DNA from: a virus
Taxonomy: Duplodnaviria > Caudoviricetes
Direction: 5' to 3' (one strand)
DNA: 43,910 nucleotides
Virus record (IMG/VR): IMGVR_UViG_3300032225_000678
Coordinates: 1 to 43,910 of that record
The notes beneath the pieces are model-generated. The model searched no databases. It saw only the letters and a program-made list of their open reading frames with translations, and was not told where the DNA came from. The position numbers and the translations under genes were made by a program. Shown here piece after piece: positions 7,724 to 22,473 of this stretch. Each line of letters opens with the position of its first letter. Position 1 is the first letter of the stretch.

Positions 7724-8176
7724 ATGGGCGATAAGCCAAAGTTTGACCGGGATAAGGTTGTTTCCGAGATTTGCGCGCGTCTGGCCACTGGTGAGCCTAT
7801 GACGCAGATTTGCCGTTCGCCCGGAATGCCTGACCCTTCTAGCGTTTGGCTTTGGTCCGAAGCAGACCCCCAAATCGCTAAAGCCATCTCACGTGCGCGC
7901 GCGTCGGGATTTGACGCCATAGCCGAAGACACCCTGGCAATCGCTGAAGGGCGCAATCCTGTAAAGGTTGACGGCGACGTGCCAGCCCAACGCGATAAGC
8001 TCCGCATCCATACGCGCATGCAACTACTCGCCAAATGGGACCCCAAGCGCTACGGCGATAACGTCCAGGTCCGACACGCAAACGCCGAGGGTGACGGAGA
8101 TGCCAGCGTCACGGTTAAGTCTGCACTGCTAGACGGTTTGCAGTCGGCTATGGCTAAGGGGAAAAAGCCTAAATAG
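7724..8176 (+). CDS. terS: terminase small subunit (Sf6 gp1-like)
   Basis: EICARLATGEPMTQICRSPGMPD...AR...RDKLRIHTRMQLLAKWDPKRYGD. Confidence 0.9.
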   Translation: MGDKPKFDRDKVVSEICARLATGEPMTQICRSPGMPDPSSVWLWSEADPQIAKAISRARASGFDAIAEDTLAIAEGRNPVKVDGDVPAQRDKLRIHTRMQLLAKWDPKRYGDNVQVRHANAEGDGDASVTVKSALLDGLQSAMAKGKKPK

Positions 8177-8180
8177 GGGC

Positions 8181-8232
8181 TTGACCCTCGCGCGCGTATG
8201 TATAAGGTCAGTCTCACGGCGCAATCAGGCGC
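8181..8232 (+). promoter_or_regulatory. promoter plus leader hairpin, cassette 1
   Basis: TTGACC-N16-TAAGGT followed by GGCGCAATCAGGCGC (8218-8232). Confidence 0.6.
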
Positions 8233-8247
8233 TAGGGAATGACTCAA

Positions 8248-8412
8248 ATGACAGAGCGCGATTTTATAAAGACGGTCGAAACGCGTGAGCTTGAAGACGG
8301 TAGCTGGCAATACGGATTTGTTCGCCAGGGTCAACCCGTGCGCTGGGCTTGCGGGACCTATGTATCCGCTAAAGCCGCCATCCGCGCCGCTGTTCGTCGG
8401 CATTATCGCTAG
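8248..8412 (+). CDS. hypothetical protein (54 aa, hand-translated)
   Basis: MTERDFIKTVETRELEDGSWQYGFVRQGQPVRWACGTYVSAKAAIRAAVRRHYR*; AGGGA RBS; lies between two promoter units. Confidence 0.6.
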   Translation: MTERDFIKTVETRELEDGSWQYGFVRQGQPVRWACGTYVSAKAAIRAAVRRHYR

Positions 8413-8428
8413 ACGGCTCTAACTTTAT

Positions 8429-8479
8429 GGGTTGACACCTTGTAACGTGTCGCTAGTGTGTCCAGGCGCAATCAAGCGC
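8429..8479 (+). promoter_or_regulatory. promoter plus leader hairpin, cassette 2 (copy 1 of a 32-bp direct repeat)
   Basis: GGGTTGACACCTTGTAACGTGTCGCTAGTGTG (TTGACA-N16-TAGTGT), then GGCGCAATCAAGCGC. Confidence 0.75.
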
Positions 8480-8494
8480 AGGTAGGAAATTCAG

Positions 8495-9256
8495 ATGTCT
8501 TATCAAATCGCGTTCACGGCTATGTCCACAAACGTCAAAACTGGGCGCATGCCTGTCACGACGACGGAACCGGATACCTGTCCGGCTGTTTGCCCTTTTA
8601 ACTCGCACCATGCAGACGCGACTAGCGAAGGCGGATGCTATGCAGAAGCTGGACCGCTTGCGCTGTTCTGGCGCAAGGTTGGCGAACGCAAGGCGGGTTT
8701 GTCATGGTCCGAAGCTATGAGCAAGATTGCCGCATTGCCTAAAGGGACCTTGTGGCGTCACAATCAAGCGGGTGATCTACCCGGCATAGATGGTGCTATA
8801 GACCTTGACGCGCTCGCCAGTCTGGTAAAAGCCAACAAAGGCAAGCGCGGATTTACATTCACACACAAGCCTGTGGCCATTGCATCGGAACGCGAAGCAA
8901 TCTCGCAAGCTAACGCAAGCGGGTTTACCATTAACCTGTCGGGCAATACGCTAGAGCATGCCGACGATCTGGCAGACTTGGCCATTGCCCCCGTCGTGTC
9001 GGTATTGCCTCTGGACATGGCACGCAAGGCGGATCGTTCGGGACAATGGCTTGAGACCTTGGCAGAGTATCGCGCCAGGGTTGGCAAGCCCAAGACGCCC
9101 AAAGGGAAACCCGTCACGGTTTGTCCCGCCACATATCGGGATGACATGTCGTGCGCCCGTTGCGGTTTGTGCTCTGTCGCTAATCGTCGCGCGGTAGTCG
9201 GCTTTCCCGCGCATGGCAACGGAAAGCGTAAGGCGGATTTGATCGCTAATGGATAA
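8495..9256 (+). CDS. Cys-rich phage protein, gp88/radical-SAM-like family
   Basis: N-x-KTG, TCPAVCP...GGCYA, WRHNQAGD, CPA...CARCGLC...FPAHG. Confidence 0.65.
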   Translation: MSYQIAFTAMSTNVKTGRMPVTTTEPDTCPAVCPFNSHHADATSEGGCYAEAGPLALFWRKVGERKAGLSWSEAMSKIAALPKGTLWRHNQAGDLPGIDGAIDLDALASLVKANKGKRGFTFTHKPVAIASEREAISQANASGFTINLSGNTLEHADDLADLAIAPVVSVLPLDMARKADRSGQWLETLAEYRARVGKPKTPKGKPVTVCPATYRDDMSCARCGLCSVANRRAVVGFPAHGNGKRKADLIANG

Positions 9257-9261
9257 ATAGC

Positions 9262-9312
9262 GGGTTGACACCTTGTAACGTGTCGCTAGTGTGGGTTGGC
9301 GCAATGAGGCGC
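9262..9312 (+). promoter_or_regulatory. promoter plus leader hairpin, cassette 3 (copy 2 of the 32-bp direct repeat)
   Basis: 9262-9293 is identical to 8429-8460; followed by GGCGCAATGAGGCGC (9298-9312). Confidence 0.75.
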
Positions 9313-9326
9313 GGGAGATTGAGACT

Positions 9327-9596
9327 ATGAACCGGCTTGCGGAACGCTTCATCCATGAAATCAAGTCCGAATGTGGCGCAGAGACCTTCACAGAGATTTG
9401 CCGCCGTAATCAGATCGCGACCTATGACGGCGCTTGTGCATCTCATGATTTCATGGATGCAAACGTGTGTATGGCTAACGCCTTTGAAGTCATCTTCGGT
9501 CGTGAATATACAGGAAATGACGCTGACACGGATTTGATCAATGAGGCATGGGATGCTGCTGCTAACCGCCTTGTGTGCGACATGGCTTACGACTAG
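9327..9596 (+). CDS. hypothetical protein (CASHDFxDAN motif)
   Basis: GGGAG RBS, ATG at 9327, in frame with ORF 9291..9596. Confidence 0.7.
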   Translation: MNRLAERFIHEIKSECGAETFTEICRRNQIATYDGACASHDFMDANVCMANAFEVIFGREYTGNDADTDLINEAWDAAANRLVCDMAYD

Positions 9597-9622
9597 CCAC
9601 TAACTACAACCCACAACCTGTC

Positions 9623-9652
9623 AAGCGCCGCGCCTAACCCGCGCGGCGCTTT
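9623..9652 (+). terminator. intrinsic terminator-like hairpin
   Basis: AAGCGCCGCGC-ctaaccc-GCGCGGCGCTT, with only a short T tract. Confidence 0.6.
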
Positions 9653-9707
9653 GCTATGCGCTGATAGCCCTAGACGGCGCTTGCCTTATGGCCTTACCTA
9701 ATCGGTC

Positions 9708-9902
9708 ATGGCCGACTACCCCGACACGCCCCTTGCCTTTGTCGCGTTTGACGACGGAGAGACCGCGCCAGTCGTGGCATGGCTGGATGACGACGGGGAC
9801 GCGGTTGAGACCCGCGAGCTTGCGACATGGGCGATTGCCCACACGTCTGAGGGTTACGTGCCGTTGCGTGTTAGCGAGGCGCGGGGGGTGACGGTGCATT
9901 AG
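9708..9902 (+). CDS. small acidic hypothetical protein
   Basis: 64 aa ORF flanked by a 15-bp direct repeat. Confidence 0.5.
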   Translation: MADYPDTPLAFVAFDDGETAPVVAWLDDDGDAVETRELATWAIAHTSEGYVPLRVSEARGVTVH

Positions 9903-10065
9903 GGTGTGACCTGGACGGCGCTTGCCTTGTAGCTGGCAGGGAATTGCGTGCGAGATTGTAGGTTCTGACCTGGACGCTTGTAGCTCTAGGTTATGTTGGC
10001 GCTCACCTTGCAAGGTGTTTACCTACTAGACCCATAGGCTTTAGCGGGTAACGCGCTAGGCATGA

Positions 10066-10150
10066 GGGGGGTAAGGGGGGGGGTGTTTGTTTTGAGGGGG
10101 TAGGGGGTAGGGAGGGGGAGAAAAACATGGGGGTGGGGGGTGAGAGTGGG
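10066..10150 (+). other. G-tract cluster (nine runs of 3-9 G), G-quadruplex potential
   Basis: G6, G9, G5, G5, G3, G5, G5, G6, G3 within 85 nt of non-coding DNA. Confidence 0.85.
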
Positions 10151-10638
10151 TATATGCACCACCGCAAAGTTTGCAGGCCCTGAGCATCCAAGCCATTAAC
10201 TATTAGCCCACGGTAAGCAGCGACAAGTTTGCAGGCTACCCCAATCCAAGGCATTAACTATTCAGCCTCCCCGCAGTTCGCCCAAAGCCCCCACTGTCAA
10301 GCGCCACTTGACACCCACACCAGTTCGCTCGAACCCCAAAACGTCAAACCACACTGAGCAAAAGCGCGACAACTCAAACCAGAGCGCCTATAGTGCCCCC
10401 TGTCGTGAGGTGAGAACGCCCTACTCACACACCCATTGGGTAAAGTAGGCTCAGGCCGAAGAGATGCAGGAAGTGTATCGCTCGAACGGCGGTCGCTTGA
10501 AAACCGGGGACCCTGCCACGACACCCCAAAATCCCTTGCACTACAAGCAATTCACCGCCATATTCGCTCATGTAGGGCGGCTGACTCCTGGCTGCCCCGA
10601 ACCAAGGGGATCGAACCCAGTGCATAGTGGCTCAGTGA

Positions 10639-12948
10639 ATGATTGACCTCGATCACATCGCGACCCTCAGCCGTGAGGAGTTACTCGAACTACCCGTTGC
10701 AACCCTACGCTACCTCGAATGGCAAGCCCGCTGGCGCGCCACGGCCAGACCTGAGCAGATACCGCCCGAAGGTGACTGGATCGAGTGGGGCGTGATGGCC
10801 GGGCGCGGATTCGGGAAGACCCGCGTCGGCGCTGAGTGGTTGGCCAATGCGGCGCTCACTGACCCTGAGGCCCTGCCGAAGTCAGTCATTGCGCCCACCC
10901 TGTCGGACGTGAGGTTCACCTGCTTCGAGGGTCAGAGCGGACTGCTTTCGATCATCCCGCCTGAGTTCGTTGAGGACTACAACAAGACCAATCTGATCAT
11001 CACCCTGACCAATGGCGGTATCATCCGAGGGTTTGGCAGTGAGTCGCCAGAACGACTTCGCGGTCCCCAGTCGTCCCTGATGTGGTGCTTTACCGGCGAT
11101 ACGCTGGTGACGATGGGTGATGGCTCTCACAAGGAGATTCGCACCGTCGTTCCTGGTGACATGGTGATGACTAGAGACGGCGCTCGAACCGTAATCGCTA
11201 ACGCCAGTCGTCCCGCTGAAGTTGGTCGAGTTTCCTTCAGCAATGGGTCGTATTTAGTAGGCACTGGGGACCATCCAGTATACACTCCGTTTGGTTGGAC
11301 GAGATTGGACCAACTGCTGACGGAGGATCAGGTATGTGTGACGTGTGCGTGGAGTGGAACGGAAAAAAGTGGCACGTCTACGGGACAGGTAGCACCGCCT
11401 ACTACGAGCGAACCGACAAGAGCGTCAAACCAAAGCGGACGGTGCGACTTCATCGAGCGTTATGGGTTGCAAACTTCGGTGAACCGCCGGAAGGGTTCCA
11501 TGTCCATCACAAGGACGGGAACAAACTCAACAACGACCTCGCAAACCTTGAGTGCATCTCGAACGCTGACCACATGCGCCATCACTACTATGAGCGCGGA
11601 CGGATCGAGCAGCCAGACTGGTCTACTCTACCGTTTTACACCGTCCAGTGCTCAGACTGTCTGGAACCAATTCAACGGAAACGTCCCGCAGGCAAATGCG
11701 TCTGTGCGAAATGTTCGACGATCCGCGCCGAGGAGAAGCGGAAGGTTGACCGAATCTGCGCCGAATGCGGAACTCCATTCCGGAGTCGATTCGGAAACTT
11801 TTGCAGCCAGCGTTGTGTCAACTTGGCAACCTGCGGGGGAACAGTCAGTGTTCTGCCTGAAGGTGGCGGAAACTCCAGAATACTTCGCGAACGGGGTCTT
11901 GGTTCATAACTGCGACGAGCTTGCCGCTTGGCAGAACGCCCAGGAGACCTGGGACATGGCGATGATGGGCCTGCGACTTGGACCAAGACCGCAGGTAGTT
12001 TGGACCACAACGCCAAAGCCCATCGAGCTTGTGCGGAAGCTGACAATCAACAAGCCGAACCGCGTGATAACTCGTGGTGCCACCTTCGACAACAAGGCCA
12101 ACCTGCCTCAGTCCTTTCTGGACAAGATGGAGGAGGACTTCGGCGGCACGACGATGGGTCGTCAGGAGATTCTCGGTGAGTTGATCGACCCTGAGGAGGC
12201 GGGGATCATCAAGCGGTCATGGTTCCGAATCTGGCCTGCCAAAAAGCCATTGCCCACCCTCGAATGGGTGATCATGTCGCTCGATACGGCCTTCACCGAG
12301 GCCACGGTCAACAAGAAGACGCACGACGCTGACTACTCTGCCTGCTCGGTGTGGGGAGTCTTCAGGCACGAGGGCAAGAGCAATGCGTTGCTGTTGGACT
12401 GCTGGCAGGAGCAACTAGGTCTGCCTGACTTGGTGAAGCGCGTTAAGAAGGAACTTCTGATCACATACGGCGATGATCAGGACGCAGCACTGCTTACCCC
12501 CATGTTCGGATCATCGAAGCCTGTGGAGTCGGGCAAGAAGATCGACATGGTGATCATTGAGGACAAGGGCTCAGGGATCAGCTTGAGGCAGACGCTCGAA
12601 CGCGAAGGGATCATGGCCTACGCCTATAACCCAGGTCGGGCAGACAAGTTGACGCGACTGCACATGGTCTCTGCGGTTTTTGCAAGGCGTCAGGTCTGGT
12701 TGCCAGAGAGCGAGAAGTATCCGGGCAGGCCGCGCACATGGGCCGAACCGTTGGTCGCTCAACTCTGTGCGTTCACGGGTAGCGGGTCTATCAAGCATGA
12801 CGATATCCTGGATTCGGTAACTCAGGCTATCCGGTTAATGATGGACAAAAACCTCCTGACCTTCGAGCGCCGAGAGAAGGAGAAAGAGCGTGAGAGGGAT
12901 GAGGTCAGAGCGCCTAGAAAACCAGTTGTCAATCCCTACGCGGTATGA
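10639..12948 (+). CDS. terL: terminase large subunit, intein-containing (769 aa precursor, ~494 aa spliced)
   Basis: Walker A MAGRGFGKT; LRGPQ; Walker B restored as LMW|CDE after splicing; TTTPKP coupling motif; nuclease SLDTA...IEDKGSG...HDDILD. Confidence 0.95.
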   Translation: MIDLDHIATLSREELLELPVATLRYLEWQARWRATARPEQIPPEGDWIEWGVMAGRGFGKTRVGAEWLANAALTDPEALPKSVIAPTLSDVRFTCFEGQSGLLSIIPPEFVEDYNKTNLIITLTNGGIIRGFGSESPERLRGPQSSLMWCFTGDTLVTMGDGSHKEIRTVVPGDMVMTRDGARTVIANASRPAEVGRVSFSNGSYLVGTGDHPVYTPFGWTRLDQLLTEDQVCVTCAWSGTEKSGTSTGQVAPPTTSEPTRASNQSGRCDFIERYGLQTSVNRRKGSMSITRTGTNSTTTSQTLSASRTLTTCAITTMSADGSSSQTGLLYRFTPSSAQTVWNQFNGNVPQANASVRNVRRSAPRRSGRLTESAPNAELHSGVDSETFAASVVSTWQPAGEQSVFCLKVAETPEYFANGVLVHNCDELAAWQNAQETWDMAMMGLRLGPRPQVVWTTTPKPIELVRKLTINKPNRVITRGATFDNKANLPQSFLDKMEEDFGGTTMGRQEILGELIDPEEAGIIKRSWFRIWPAKKPLPTLEWVIMSLDTAFTEATVNKKTHDADYSACSVWGVFRHEGKSNALLLDCWQEQLGLPDLVKRVKKELLITYGDDQDAALLTPMFGSSKPVESGKKIDMVIIEDKGSGISLRQTLEREGIMAYAYNPGRADKLTRLHMVSAVFARRQVWLPESEKYPGRPRTWAEPLVAQLCAFTGSGSIKHDDILDSVTQAIRLMMDKNLLTFERREKEKERERDEVRAPRKPVVNPYAV
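11086..11910 (+). mobile_element. intein (275 aa) in the terL Walker B motif
   Basis: Block A CFTGDTLVTMGDG, block B GTGDHPVYT (TxxH), block F VFCLKVAETPEYFANG, block G VLVHN followed by Cys+1 (11911-11913). Confidence 0.93.
11334..11909 (+). CDS. HNH homing endonuclease with C-terminal Zn fingers, nested out of frame (+2) inside the intein
   Basis: GGAGG at 11322-11326, ATG at 11334, 191 aa; LHRALWVANFGEPPEGFHVHHKDGNKLNNDLANLECISNADHMRHH (HNH); CSDC, CAKC, CAEC, FCSQRC. Confidence 0.88.
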   Translation: MCDVCVEWNGKKWHVYGTGSTAYYERTDKSVKPKRTVRLHRALWVANFGEPPEGFHVHHKDGNKLNNDLANLECISNADHMRHHYYERGRIEQPDWSTLPFYTVQCSDCLEPIQRKRPAGKCVCAKCSTIRAEEKRKVDRICAECGTPFRSRFGNFCSQRCVNLATCGGTVSVLPEGGGNSRILRERGLGS

Positions 12949-13127
12949 GATAAATGGGTCGTTCTCCAGGAACAACCCTCAGCCCTGAGCGGATACACAG
13001 ACTGATCCTCTGTCGCTCAGGCCACACACCGAGGTGGGCGGTCGCTCCCACCCGCACTTGGCCGCGATAGTATAGCCGTGGGAATGCCAAGATTACCCAC
13101 GGACGCGTTCCCCGCAAATCGTATGTA

Positions 13128-13547
13128 ATGGAGAAGACTATGCGCCTTCACTACCCGGTCATCATTACTGCCAATGACGGTGCTTACTCGGCGGTCTTCC
13201 CTGACTTCCCCGATGCGGGTGCCGATGCTGACTCTGTGTCGGAGATCATGGTCGCAATCGACGACGCGCTTCAGGAGGCATTGACCATCGCTGTGCTCAA
13301 GGGTGAGACGCTCCCTGACCCGTCTCCGTTCGAGCAGGCGTTGACCTATGACGACGACAATGCGACGTGGTGGTCGATGGCGCACTGCGACGTGCCTTCG
13401 GACAGCGAGAACTTCGACCGCATCATGAGCGGACTGCATGAGATCGAGCAGGAGTTCATGAAGCCAGTGCTGGTCGTTGGGCTTGAGACGGGTCCGACCG
13501 TCGCTGATGCTGAGACGGCACTTGGCGTAACGCCGAGAGAGTGGTAG
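13128..13547 (+). CDS. hicB: HicB-family antitoxin-like protein (no adjacent HicA)
   Basis: HYPVII...YSAVFPDFP.....DSVSE....DALQ...GETLPDPS matches the HicB N-terminal pattern; the start may be ATG 13140. Confidence 0.75.
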   Translation: MEKTMRLHYPVIITANDGAYSAVFPDFPDAGADADSVSEIMVAIDDALQEALTIAVLKGETLPDPSPFEQALTYDDDNATWWSMAHCDVPSDSENFDRIMSGLHEIEQEFMKPVLVVGLETGPTVADAETALGVTPREW

Positions 13548-19129: not shown

Positions 19130-19879
19130 GTGACTTACTACGCCTACATCCATGCTCGGCCTGAAACTACCGACCAGTTCGGTGTGTTTTACGTCGGCAA
19201 GGGTGTGGGTGGCCGACGCAAGCCTACCCCTCACCGCAACCGCCATCACGGCCATGTGGTTGAGAAACACGGTGCTGAGAACATTCTGATTGGGTCAATC
19301 GACTGCTCTGATGAGGCCACGGCCTTTGAACTGGAGCGGGGTCTGATCAAGTGTCTGAAGCGATCCGGCGTGCGTCTTACCAACATGACCGACGGGGGCG
19401 AAGGAAGTTCCGGTTTTGTCATGCCGCAATCGGCCAAGGACAAGATTGCTGTTAGCGCAGCCATCATGGCTAAGGACCCTGTGATCCGCGAAAAGCGTAG
19501 CGCAGCGACCAAAGCCAACAACTTGGTCAACTGGGCCGACCCTGACTACAAGGCCAGGGTATCGGAATCCATGCGGGGTAAGAAAAAGACTCGCACTGAA
19601 GCATCTGACGCTGCGAGGCGTGCAAATGCTCAGAAGGCTAATACTGATGAGCGGCGCAAAGCCGCTTCGGAAGCTATTAAATTGCGTTGGGCCGATCCTG
19701 AGTTCCGAGAGCGTATGGCTGAGAAGCGCCGCGAATCTTGGAAGGACCCTGAAAAGCGGGCGGCGATGCTCGCTGGCCGGTCAGAAGGGATCAGTAAGTC
19801 ATGGGACAACCCTGAGACCCGTGAAAAACGTATCCGAGGGATCAAGAATCCCCGGACTACAACCCAGAAGGATAACTAG
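19130..19879 (+). CDS. free-standing GIY-YIG homing endonuclease with repeated helical DNA-binding motifs
   Basis: YYAYIH...FYVGKG...R...E-x-x-LI...LTNMTDGGEG; five W/K-x-[DN]P-x-x-[RK] repeats (NUMOD3-like). Confidence 0.85.
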   Translation: MTYYAYIHARPETTDQFGVFYVGKGVGGRRKPTPHRNRHHGHVVEKHGAENILIGSIDCSDEATAFELERGLIKCLKRSGVRLTNMTDGGEGSSGFVMPQSAKDKIAVSAAIMAKDPVIREKRSAATKANNLVNWADPDYKARVSESMRGKKKTRTEASDAARRANAQKANTDERRKAASEAIKLRWADPEFRERMAEKRRESWKDPEKRAAMLAGRSEGISKSWDNPETREKRIRGIKNPRTTTQKDN

Positions 19880-20922: not shown

Positions 20923-22473
20923 ATGGTATACGATCTTCAACGCGTCCTTTCCAAGTTCCCCAAAGAGGTCTTGGATCGCTATGATTTCTCAAACGCGGTT
21001 TACACTGAGGCGCTAAAGCCCATCACAGGTATCATTTGCCCTGAGCACGGCGAGTTCAAACAATACTGCGGCCAACTCCGTAAACCCAAAGGGGCTGGGT
21101 GCCCTGCGTGTGGGGATGCTACTCGCAGATCAAAGCAGCGCCTGACTCAAGGGCAAGCTATTGCCAATATGGTTGAAACTCACAAGGGTCTGTATGACTA
21201 CTCCAAGGTTGTCTACAGAGGTTCGGCGGAAAAGATCACCGTCGTTTGCCCTGAGCATGGTGAGTTTCTGACGACATACAACAATCACAATGCGGGGAGG
21301 GGTTGCCCTGTGTGTGGGAATGCTAGGAAGGGCACTTGGTCTGGAATTGAAGAGGCACGAAAGAAGACCGCTGCGACCAAGATCGCTCGTCACGCGTTTA
21401 CCTTCGTAGCTCAGGCTCGTGCCGTTCACGGAGATGCCTACGACTACAGTCAGGTCGTTTACGCCGGAAAACGATCAAAAGTTACGATCATTTGCAAGAA
21501 GCACGGCTCCTTTCAGCAGACTCCTGGACATCACATCTGGCGAGCGCACGGTTGCCCTGAGTGCTCACATCACAGGTCCAAGGGTGAAGCGGCTATCTTC
21601 AACTTCGTGTCTATTTTCTGTGAGCCCATGTCCCGCGACCGGGCAACGCTCGGCGGCAAAGAACTGGACATCCATCTGGTCGATCATAAACTCGCCATCG
21701 AGTATTGCGGAGAATATTGGCACGGAGCTTCCAGCGTCAAAGAGGAGCAGACGGCTAGAAATCGTCACCTGGAGAAGTATGAAGCCTGCAAGGCCAAGGG
21801 TATCAGGCTTCTGACGATCTATGAGAGCGAATGGCTCGCACGCCCTGAGGCTATCAAGCGTTTGATCCGAAACGCACTTGGCAAGTCTCGTGGCAGCGTC
21901 ATGGCTCGGAAGTGTGAACTTAAGAAGGTTGATACTCGTGAGGCTTCGGCCTTCTACGACAAATATCACCCTCAGGGTGGAGCAGGCAGCGGTGAACACT
22001 ACGGCTTGTTCTATTCGGGCAAGATGGTTGCGTGCATGAGGTTTACGTTCGGAGCCAATGACCGTGGTGCCAATTCGGAGCGGGTTTGGACACTTAGCCG
22101 CTATGCGACCCGCATAACTGTCCGTGGAGGGGCAACTAGGCTTATGACGGCGTTCATTCGTGAGTATGATCCGCCCGTCATCAAGTCGTTCTCTGACAAC
22201 CGATACTTTGACGGTGGGATGTATGAGTCCCTTGGCTTCACGCTTGAAGAAGTCACCGACCCTGATTATCAGGTCTATCATCAGAAGATCGGACTGCTGC
22301 CCAAGTCAGCGTGGCAGAGGAAGTCGATCCCGAAGCGCATCAAGGAGATTGGGTCGAGCGAAGTGTTCGATCCTGAGACTGACCCTAGGACCGAGAGGGA
22401 GATGACTTTCCTTCTTGAAGCGCAAAGGATATTCGACTGCGGCAAGAAACGCTGGACTCTTACACGCCACTAG
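20923..22473 (+). CDS. Hef-like homing endonuclease: three DUF723-type Zn repeats, PD-(D/E)xK domain, C-terminal GNAT/Mom-like domain
   Basis: 3x YD[FY]S-x-x-x-Y...C-x-x-HG-x-F...GCP-x-C; ELDI...LAIEYCGEYWH...IRLLTIYESEW; ARKC...HPQG...LSRYAT...GGATRL...SFSDNRY..G.MYESLGF. Confidence 0.8.
   Translation: MVYDLQRVLSKFPKEVLDRYDFSNAVYTEALKPITGIICPEHGEFKQYCGQLRKPKGAGCPACGDATRRSKQRLTQGQAIANMVETHKGLYDYSKVVYRGSAEKITVVCPEHGEFLTTYNNHNAGRGCPVCGNARKGTWSGIEEARKKTAATKIARHAFTFVAQARAVHGDAYDYSQVVYAGKRSKVTIICKKHGSFQQTPGHHIWRAHGCPECSHHRSKGEAAIFNFVSIFCEPMSRDRATLGGKELDIHLVDHKLAIEYCGEYWHGASSVKEEQTARNRHLEKYEACKAKGIRLLTIYESEWLARPEAIKRLIRNALGKSRGSVMARKCELKKVDTREASAFYDKYHPQGGAGSGEHYGLFYSGKMVACMRFTFGANDRGANSERVWTLSRYATRITVRGGATRLMTAFIREYDPPVIKSFSDNRYFDGGMYESLGFTLEEVTDPDYQVYHQKIGLLPKSAWQRKSIPKRIKEIGSSEVFDPETDPRTEREMTFLLEAQRIFDCGKKRWTLTRH

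Follow-up and report, generated by a model that had tools for sequence, protein, structure and literature searches.

Inteins whose homing endonuclease (HEN) is encoded outside the splicing frame have been described recently in two settings. Gosselin et al. (10.1101/2025.01.02.630785) report inteins that carry an endonuclease VII-like HEN, placed in frame 3; the accessible part of that work gives HNH nucleases only as in-frame, locates non-canonical inteins in large numbers in terminase large subunits, suggests invasion by a HEN that was free-standing and cautions that such inteins may be misannotated as mini-inteins. Phillips, DeSimone and Gogarten (10.64898/2026.09.14.751524) describe a cyanobacterial dnaX intein with an out-of-frame LAGLIDADG HEN. 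In the excerpted text of two further papers, the ShiLan domain of actinophage methylases is presented as hiding an HNH out of frame (Arsenault et al. 2025, PMC11855218), and fractured genes as split intein halves around a free-standing HEN, with one terminase locus among them (Dassa et al. 2009, PMC2677866). The present work concerns the terminase large subunit gene (terL) of a Caudoviricetes virus, IMG/VR record IMGVR_UViG_3300032225_000678. The window is the whole stretch of 43,910 nt, a 43.9-kb metagenomic virus record with a CheckV completeness of 78%. Its terL carries an intein that is overlapped on the same strand by a separate HNH endonuclease gene in the −1 frame (equivalent to +2).

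A layout of this kind was thus already published in 2025–2026, and the novelty that the initial annotation implied for an out-of-frame intein nuclease does not survive the reports of Gosselin et al. and Phillips et al. What is new is the variant, an HNH_3/zinc-finger version in the Walker B motif of phage terL. No out-of-frame HNH in an intein was found in a literature search whose reach ended before subscription papers and preprint supplements. An HNH_3 intein described elsewhere (PMC6293099) was considered as prior art and rejected, because the HNH_3 in the available part of that paper is in-frame.

As far as the accessible text of Gosselin et al. describes their inteins, the window locus resembles them in its same-strand endonuclease in frame 3 (that is, −1), its contiguous intein and its structureless in-frame middle. 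It departs from them in its nuclease, here HNH_3 with an I-HmuI-like core and Cys4 fingers, and in its hosts, which extend beyond Actinobacteria; furthermore, the term "start codon" is absent from their main text as accessed. With the dnaX intein it shares an overlapping same-strand HEN open reading frame (ORF) with a putative Shine–Dalgarno (SD) sequence, a disordered in-frame middle, a low ratio of nonsynonymous to synonymous substitution rates (dN/dS) in the HEN frame with a high one in the host frame, and the coexistence of empty, mini and full alleles. That nuclease, in contrast, is a LAGLIDADG enzyme in a bacterial chromosomal gene, and the words "HNH" and "terminase" are absent from the text; the layout is called a rarity there, whereas the present HNH family is widespread in phage terL. 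The window locus has the contiguous host frame with a HEN ORF between the splicing halves that characterizes out-of-frame-HEN inteins. Its nuclease matches only HNH_3, neither of the described endonuclease VII-like and LAGLIDADG types, and it is therefore a variant and not a member of either described family.

The initial annotation pointed to an off-frame HNH reported in a non-intein insertion of actinophage methylases. On the excerpted description (PMC11855218), ShiLan likewise places an out-of-frame HNH in a stop-free insertion of a phage gene; it has, however, no splicing domain, its ribosome-binding site went undetected and leaderless initiation was proposed, whereas here the host frame holds a full Hint domain and the SD is strong and conserved. 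The fractured genes, on the excerpted account of Dassa et al., are similar in that a separate gene between the intein halves encodes the HEN and overlaps the C-terminal half with its 3' end. They differ in that the host frame of the window is contiguous, with cis-splicing predicted, and is broken only in 8 distant matches of the family; their HENs, moreover, are GIY-YIG or Vsr-like, not HNH. The layout of an HNH followed by two zinc fingers for DNA binding recalls, by description, that of I-TevIII, which cuts both strands as a dimer and is, unlike the present nuclease, intron-encoded (PMC1865063, as excerpted).

The features of the locus are as follows.

10639–11085, + strand: terL N-extein, 149 aa, N-part of the ATPase with Walker A GRGFGKT, ending in LMW (Pfam Terminase_6N, E = 4.3e-12).
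11086–11349, + strand: N-terminal splicing region of the intein, residues 1–88, terL frame (Pfam, predicted-model confidence, invariant residues).
11322–11336, + strand: GGAGGA (11322–11327), a 6-nt spacer and ATG, within the terL-frame codons T-E-D-Q-V-C; SD-like.
11334–11909, + strand: HNH_3 endonuclease gene, 191 aa, −1 frame relative to terL (Pfam, profile, fold).
11350–11790, + strand: terL-frame linker, about residues 89–234, a by-product of the HNH codons (model; terL-frame dN/dS 0.8–2.5 in relatives).
11791–11910, + strand: C-terminal splicing strands of the intein (block F, His-Asn), dual-coded with the HNH CSQRC finger and tail.
11911–12948, + strand: terL C-extein, 345 aa, from the +1 Cys of CDE, with the RNase H-like nuclease domain (Pfam Terminase_6C, E = 3.2e-6; PHROG terminase large subunit, E = 1.8e-29).

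The terL ORF (10639–12948, 769 aa) is stop-free throughout, and reading it together with its motifs bears out the annotated 275-aa intein with splicing blocks in Walker B. The intein comprises terL residues 150–424 (11086–11910), inserted at LMW/CDE (the slash marks the insertion point); its computed excision leaves a 494-aa protein. The previously assigned start at 11086 stands, and the end moves from 11913 to 11910, since 11911–11913 encodes the +1 Cys, an extein residue. The splicing motifs comprise C1 at 11086, T60-G-D-H63, block F (VFCLKV...EYFANG) and a terminal His-Asn ending at 11910. Among 35 aligned inteins C1, T60, H63 and N275 are invariant and H274 is conserved in at least 90%. 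Cys1, the +1 Cys, the block B TxxH and the terminal His-Asn are those of a class 1 intein, as is its in-frame position at a conserved site that other alleles leave empty (74 empty, gap 0 at W/CDE); the Hint fold built from N- and C-terminal parts is seen in the predicted model. Run on an alignment of 35 rows, AlphaFold models residues 1–88 and about 238–276 confidently as a Hint domain, with a low-confidence middle: predicted local distance difference test scores (pLDDT) exceed 95 for residues 1–80 and 241–276 and lie mostly below 50 in the linker (about 89–234). The best Foldseek match of this model is the Ssp DnaB mini-intein (E = 3.9e-8), and inteins lead the 42 PDB matches at E ≤ 0.001. 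The terL-frame product would thus resemble a mini-intein, with a predicted floppy linker. Pfam finds no nuclease family in the terL frame, and the endonuclease is not in the same polypeptide as in a canonical bifunctional intein. The description of this frame as a motif-free linker holds for about residues 89–234, which are rich in T, S, R, A and G; it fails for the C-terminal splicing strands that lie under the end of the HNH gene. Protein splicing of the window intein may be inferred from the intact motifs and the interrupted Walker B of an essential gene.

The −1 frame stays open over 11220–11909, and the ATG at 11334 yields 191 aa, so that both frames are stop-free over the whole HNH length; the third frame is closed, with 7 stops in the same 150 codons. 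The product matches Pfam HNH_3 (PF13392; E = 1.5e-14, 53.8 bits vs a cut-off of 24.8) and no other nuclease family. Its beta-beta-alpha-metal core residues H58/H59/N67/N71/H80 are followed by two Cys4 zinc-finger-like units, C106/109/124/127 and C142/145/157/161. Over 29 HNH sequences H59 and H80 are invariant and H58, N67 and N71 are present in at least 90%, and all motif residues are intact in the window. Together with the GGAGGA, this agrees with the nuclease, zinc fingers and own SD proposed earlier for 11334–11909. The mean pLDDT of the HNH model is 88, and Foldseek returned no match for it at E ≤ 0.001; the best PDB match is I-HmuI (1u3e), with modest scores in both profile (E = 0.0014) and fold (E = 2.8e-3, identity 18%). 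The catalytic cores align, the I-HmuI active-site residues D74/H75/N83/N87/N96 with H58/H59/N67/N71/H80. I-HmuI itself is intron-encoded and nicks its target. The HNH stop codon TAA is built from the intein His-Asn codons CAT AAC, and the last ~40 HNH codons overlap the C-terminal splicing strands of the intein, with both frames conserved there.

Of the 50 distinct inteins, 26 full-length ones in the Walker B group were used to follow selection on the two frames; the remaining 24 are those at the nuclease-domain site, three with deletions and three divergent ones at Walker B. Variability by codon position is 0.36/0.29/0.64 in the N-terminal splicing region, peaking at terL position 3, and 0.45/0.41/0.64 in the core, peaking at HNH position 3. 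The HNH frame has an amino-acid identity of 43% in the core and 65% in the shared tail, the terL frame one of 24% and 53%, respectively. Ten of 325 pairs, none containing the window, passed the threshold of at least 62% core identity, and in these relatives dN/dS is 0.07–0.32 in the HNH frame vs 0.82–2.48 in the terL frame, with 0.06–0.45 in the N-terminal splicing region. In the middle region of these relatives purifying selection acts in the HNH frame and the host frame is relaxed, as expected of an out-of-frame-HEN intein. These values in relatives agree with the earlier expectation of purifying selection in the +2 frame and mere stop avoidance in frame 0; host-frame stops number 0 in 26/26 relatives vs ~71 expected in total.

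Searches with the HNH yielded 45 viral loci, 53 metagenome loci and 43 phage records (5 of these fetched), which together with the window makes 110 matches at 104 loci, counting duplicates across collections. In 90 of the 110 matches a long open host ORF has the HNH in its −1 frame; both intein ends were parsed in 77 of these (50 distinct intein DNA sequences, the window among them) and the C-terminal end only in 13. By inspection, the remaining 20 divide into 8 with a broken host frame and intein halves, 2 in-frame and 10 free-standing HNHs, the last with an equivalent frame that closes within 69–171 nt. The two in-frame matches are one contig held twice, a distant HNH intein in an amino-acid:DNA transferase gene. 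None of the 110 matches has its HNH in the +1 frame. The subset of host ORFs that were read by eye or are annotated are terminases. The same −1 layout occurs in an isolate genome, Beijerinckia mobilis, and in the annotated phage terL of TJE1, phiCDHM19 and LS06-2018-MD07, where the annotations give terL only across the overlap. A repeat viral scan with one pattern of the HNH alignment returned 28 loci, all previously found, a one-pattern GTDB scan only 2 loci, cellular genomes being undersampled in it, and a tblastn search with the intein against annotated phages only 4 weak records.

For one sequence alone an open host frame is not very improbable; the strong evidence comes from the family as a whole. 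When the HNH codons are resampled synonymously, 1.5–2.3 host-frame stops are expected per 150 codons, with a probability of none of 6–18%, against 6–10 stops in the third frame. In the opposite direction, with the terL-frame linker taken as fixed, an open −1 frame would arise by chance with P = 0.0008. The single overlap is therefore most easily understood as an HNH gene with its cheaper alternative frame left free of stops. Host-frame stops arise only from the nuclease codon pairs NTA+A/G and NTG+A; the three stop-making codon-pair classes have 0 occurrences, and the other 13 classes 27–74 each. Because so few nuclease codon pairs make host-frame stops, the −1 frame was likely chosen as the cheap one, in which synonymous choice avoids nearly all of them.

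The HNH start codon falls at intein nt 243–249 in 25 of 26 sequences (ATG 21, GTG 3, TTG 1). A conserved Cys codon of the terL frame supplies its TG, and the wobble base of the preceding codon its A; that base is A in 21/25, where extein usage predicts 5.05. Of the Gly codons in the SD zone, 21/22 have a purine as third base vs 7.8 expected. The anti-SD pairing energy in the window, −9.5 kcal/mol, equals the best of 16 other gene starts, the terL start reaching −1.5; the median is −7.15 for 28 inteins vs −2.8 for 324 out-of-frame extein ATGs. From the same MCxxC-type start are called 42 of the 59 best database homologues. A sigma-70 and terminator scan of 10300–13100 found one site upstream of terL (vs 0.7 expected), no promoter-like site in the intein and no useful terminator, and folding of 11285–11370 gave no evidence of a regulatory hairpin over the SD (z = −0.87). 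Since no promoter-like site was seen within the intein, the HNH probably shares the terL message, with any separation at the level of translation; the uncoupling of HNH expression from the terminase, as suggested earlier, is putative. On the sequence signals, internal initiation appears much likelier than frameshifting.

Mobility was assessed in the best 80 of 147 terL relatives, which comprise 74 empty, 1 occupied and 5 incomplete alleles (74/75 informative alleles empty). The nearest allele among them, L106, is 98% identical in amino acids, empty, and has Ala at +1. The adjoining feature is:

11911–11928, + strand: putative co-conversion tract, 9/18 nt different from L106, including Cys for Ala at +1.

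Over +1..+21 L106 groups with L107 at 6 sites and with the window at 0; in the flanks the relation reverses, L106 and L107 agreeing at 8 sites and the window and L106 at 66, and overall L107 is more distant than the window from L106. The 18 downstream bases of the window are within 3 changes of 58/74 empty alleles. Such a flank fits co-conversion that would have brought the +1 Cys along with the intein; it could also stem from recombination or escape changes in L106/L107. One sequencing run of another study contains one occupied and two empty contigs. Furthermore, HNH identity tracks that of the splicing domain (Spearman 0.73) more than that of the extein (0.44). The comparative signals of a homing role are thus the patchy distribution and the co-conversion-like flank, both indirect. 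As a side observation, the terL of L106 holds after Walker A an intein-like insert of ~184 aa (GFGK/QLCVETP...HN/TRVG) that starts with Gln-Leu-Cys, not Cys1; it is absent in the window, and a similar loose end was seen at window position 10818 in run X3.

Taken together, it is probable that the terminase intein splices out and that a separately initiated −1-frame HNH drives its homing. Ribosomes on the terL message would make the 769-aa precursor, and class-1 splicing through C1, His63, His-Asn and the +1 Cys would restore Walker B in a 494-aa TerL. Other ribosomes would start at GGAGGA-N6-ATG (11334) and produce the 191-aa HNH. During co-infection this nuclease might nick or cut an empty terL near RGPQxxxxW/CDELAAW, and repair from the occupied allele would copy the intein with a short flank. 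The earlier proposal of splicing and homing as two proteins on one stretch of DNA is thereby supported in part (two encoded proteins, selection in the HNH frame, a conserved start and SD, patchiness), its implied novelty excepted.

Several points weigh against this reading. The block F residue of the window intein is Cys, Asp being the more usual one. Searches of both frames with profile models gave HNH_3 in the −1 frame, as expected, and Intein_splicing, Vint and Hint families in the terL frame, the latter mostly under the curated cut-off (33.1 vs 35.8). L020 lacks a start at the shared position, with an ATG upstream, and the deleted loci L028, L031 and L045 indicate that SD and ATG signals can outlast nuclease function; the sequences are related, and formal P values for the start and SD base counts and SD energies overstate their independence. 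An extein tree with 32 occupied alleles and 16 empty ones requires 8 changes of the intein label, of which starred branches force at least 5, in a biased sample with intein rows taken from the HNH search and 16 of the 74 empty alleles hand-picked; the intein tree is poorly resolved (8/29 branches starred), and the patchiness could include losses. L106 differs from the window at 13/39 nt around the site vs 79/1128 elsewhere, over a stretch picked after inspection of the data. Near-identical inteins in distant exteins were looked for, and no pair was found; the four closest HNH pairs (87–98%) sit in exteins 75–100% identical, and because the closest inteins occupy the closest exteins, recent long-range jumps find no support in this comparison. 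The window allele belongs to none of the ten dN/dS pairs. Finally, the case is built on sequence and comparison, from which we infer splicing, initiation and homing.

Some of these points would suit an HNH that is intact and no longer mobilising, a passenger or recent relic whose patchiness reflects vertical descent with repeated loss: the deleted derivatives L028, L031 and L045, the placement of the closest inteins in the closest exteins, and the position of the window outside the dN/dS pairs. Such a relic is nonetheless unlikely, as close pairs retain a low dN/dS (L003/L005 0.12, L019/L022 0.07, L018/L070 0.13), the motif residues of the window are all intact, its flank looks co-converted relative to L106/L107, and the intein would have to be lost precisely from 74 of 75 alleles. 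Very unlikely, too, is retention of the HNH as a terminase packaging cofactor similar to HK97 gp74, or for another phage function, instead of homing. Its location in terL and the expected co-expression agree with this role, and HNH proteins assist some terminases (PMC11855218, as excerpted); on the other hand, 74 of 75 close terL alleles lack the HNH, one at 98% identity, the protein resembles I-HmuI-type homing nucleases, its similarity follows the splicing domain over the extein, and core-deleted versions persist.

A programmed −1 frameshift, with the SD-like sequence stimulating slippage, would instead generate a TerL(N)-intein(N)-HNH fusion. Programmed shifts are usually −1, and upstream SD-like sequences can stimulate them. 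This would account for the HNH lying constantly in the −1 frame of open hosts, and in the window that frame is open for 114 nt upstream of the ATG. However, an X XXY YYZ heptamer is absent in 25/28 inteins, the window included, in 4/28 no more than 3 nt of open −1 frame precede the start codon, ATG, GTG and TTG alternate at normal SD spacing, and the −1 bias is explained by stop cost (~1.5 vs 10 expected stops per 150 codons), which leaves the fusion quite improbable. An assembly artefact, in which two compensating indels displaced an in-frame HNH, might be suspected in a metagenomic record, the more so as one protein of 4484 longer candidates (P0003) joins terminase, Hint and HNH in one frame. 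P0003 is a singleton with a frame change in mid-HNH and no intein C-terminus, and it was rejected as a working in-frame form; that search for in-frame fusions is weak as a negative. The 50 distinct intein sequences and the isolate genomes share the frame relation, and two contigs align without a gap, one of 952 nt from another study (11022–11973, 63 substitutions) and one of 531 nt (11321–11851, 30 substitutions). The artefact is thereby excluded and the overlap is real. Two of the outcomes that would have undone the initial annotation did not materialize, compensating indels and an HNH in frame in all homologues: close relatives carry no in-frame HNH, and the −1 position prevails throughout the family. 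The spliced intein with a separately initiated, homing HNH remains the preferred reading.

Other members of the family show altered forms of the same element. Three different in-frame deletions of the HNH core, in L028, L031 and L045, leave mini-inteins of 134–176 aa that keep the SD, the ATG, the tail and a short −1 ORF; in L031 the deletion join fuses the first and last CxxC motifs. In L039/L040 and L041/L042/L091–L094, terminase inteins at the nuclease-domain site, the host frame is broken around the HNH in a fractured-gene-like manner. L039 and L041 fall inside a clade of overprinted nuclease-site inteins (SH-like approximate likelihood-ratio support 97) in a quick 66-row tree that left out deleted, truncated and broken loci and L098.

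Several loci were also observed in their own right. L013/L014 hold two inteins in one terL (1060–1875 and 2557–3348 in L013 coordinates), each with its own −1-frame HNH, at Walker B and at ALYEQ/C in the nuclease domain. In L002, L017–L019, L022, L068, L070, L078 and L090 the intein occupies several adjacent positions upstream of Walker B (RGPQH/, RGPQHD/, RGPQFDL/, RGPQxxxxW/), with Cys, Ser or Thr at +1, a case of target-site creep. The terL of phage phiCD119 (L049, 1501–2595) is interrupted and annotated as two genes, and the close phiCDHM19 allele has a contiguous terL with a 230-codon −1 HNH frame; the interruption is an old sequencing error or decay, and this locus counts among the 13 C-end-only matches, its host frame being interrupted farther upstream. 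The helicase gp40 intein of Xanthomonas phage FoX3 (L052, MT161383.1, 2069–2869; VVLWDE/C...HN/CHH) has in its −1 frame, on the same strand, a LAGLIDADG_2 ORF (E = 1e-21) that is missing from the annotation, which adds a third nuclease family to this arrangement. In Gordonia phage Fosterous (L051, 1311–1847) an unannotated endonuclease VII ORF (Endonuclease_7, E = 5e-21) lies in the −1 frame of a terL intein inserted at VLVM/.../TRW, unlike the window intein with its Walker B site.

With regard to the neighbourhood, the window encodes terS, terL, portal and capsid genes (Pfam, PHROG). A gap of ~2.4 kb (8177–10638) with DUF7227 and small ORFs separates terS (7724–8176) from terL and includes a G-rich low-complexity run at ~10060–10150. 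A HicB-like antitoxin-family ORF (13128–13547; Pfam E = 2e-8) lies between terL and portal. The major capsid gene is flanked by two free-standing homing-endonuclease-like genes, at 19130–19879 (PHROG E = 9e-12; GIY-YIG-like by eye) and at 20923–22473 (PHROG E = 1.5e-101; zinc-finger repeats and a weak restriction endonuclease match). No Pfam match was found for an antisense ORF at 11672–12046. An RNA intron is unsupported, with 0 Rfam matches at the gathering score over the whole window, and none of the 13 sequencing runs listed is an RNA dataset with the locus.

More broadly, −1 overprinting may be a stable and common way for homing nucleases to ride inteins, a generalization that we put forward tentatively, at somewhat less than even confidence. 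One HNH/zinc-finger lineage would have spread in this manner through the terminases of several phyla, at the Walker B and nuclease-domain sites, building its SD and start from intein beta-strand codons and decaying by in-frame deletion to mini-inteins or by host-frame breakage to fractured genes. The principle is already published, which limits the surprise; the locus adds a near-identical empty allele with a co-conversion-like flank and gives internal initiation quantitative support, and phage terminases commonly have a layout that was called rare in 2025–2026. Gene callers keep one frame, so that either the nuclease or the terminase is missed. The family offers a reason in the genetic code for the use of the −1 frame, and its full, deleted, broken and empty alleles provide material on how inteins gain and lose nucleases. 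Its compactness, natural dual coding and strong internal SD also suit it to the study of internal initiation within a translated ORF. If the generalization is true, many phage inteins annotated as degenerate or long-linker forms would in fact be homing actively, and a single continuum would join the contiguous, the overprinted and the fractured types.

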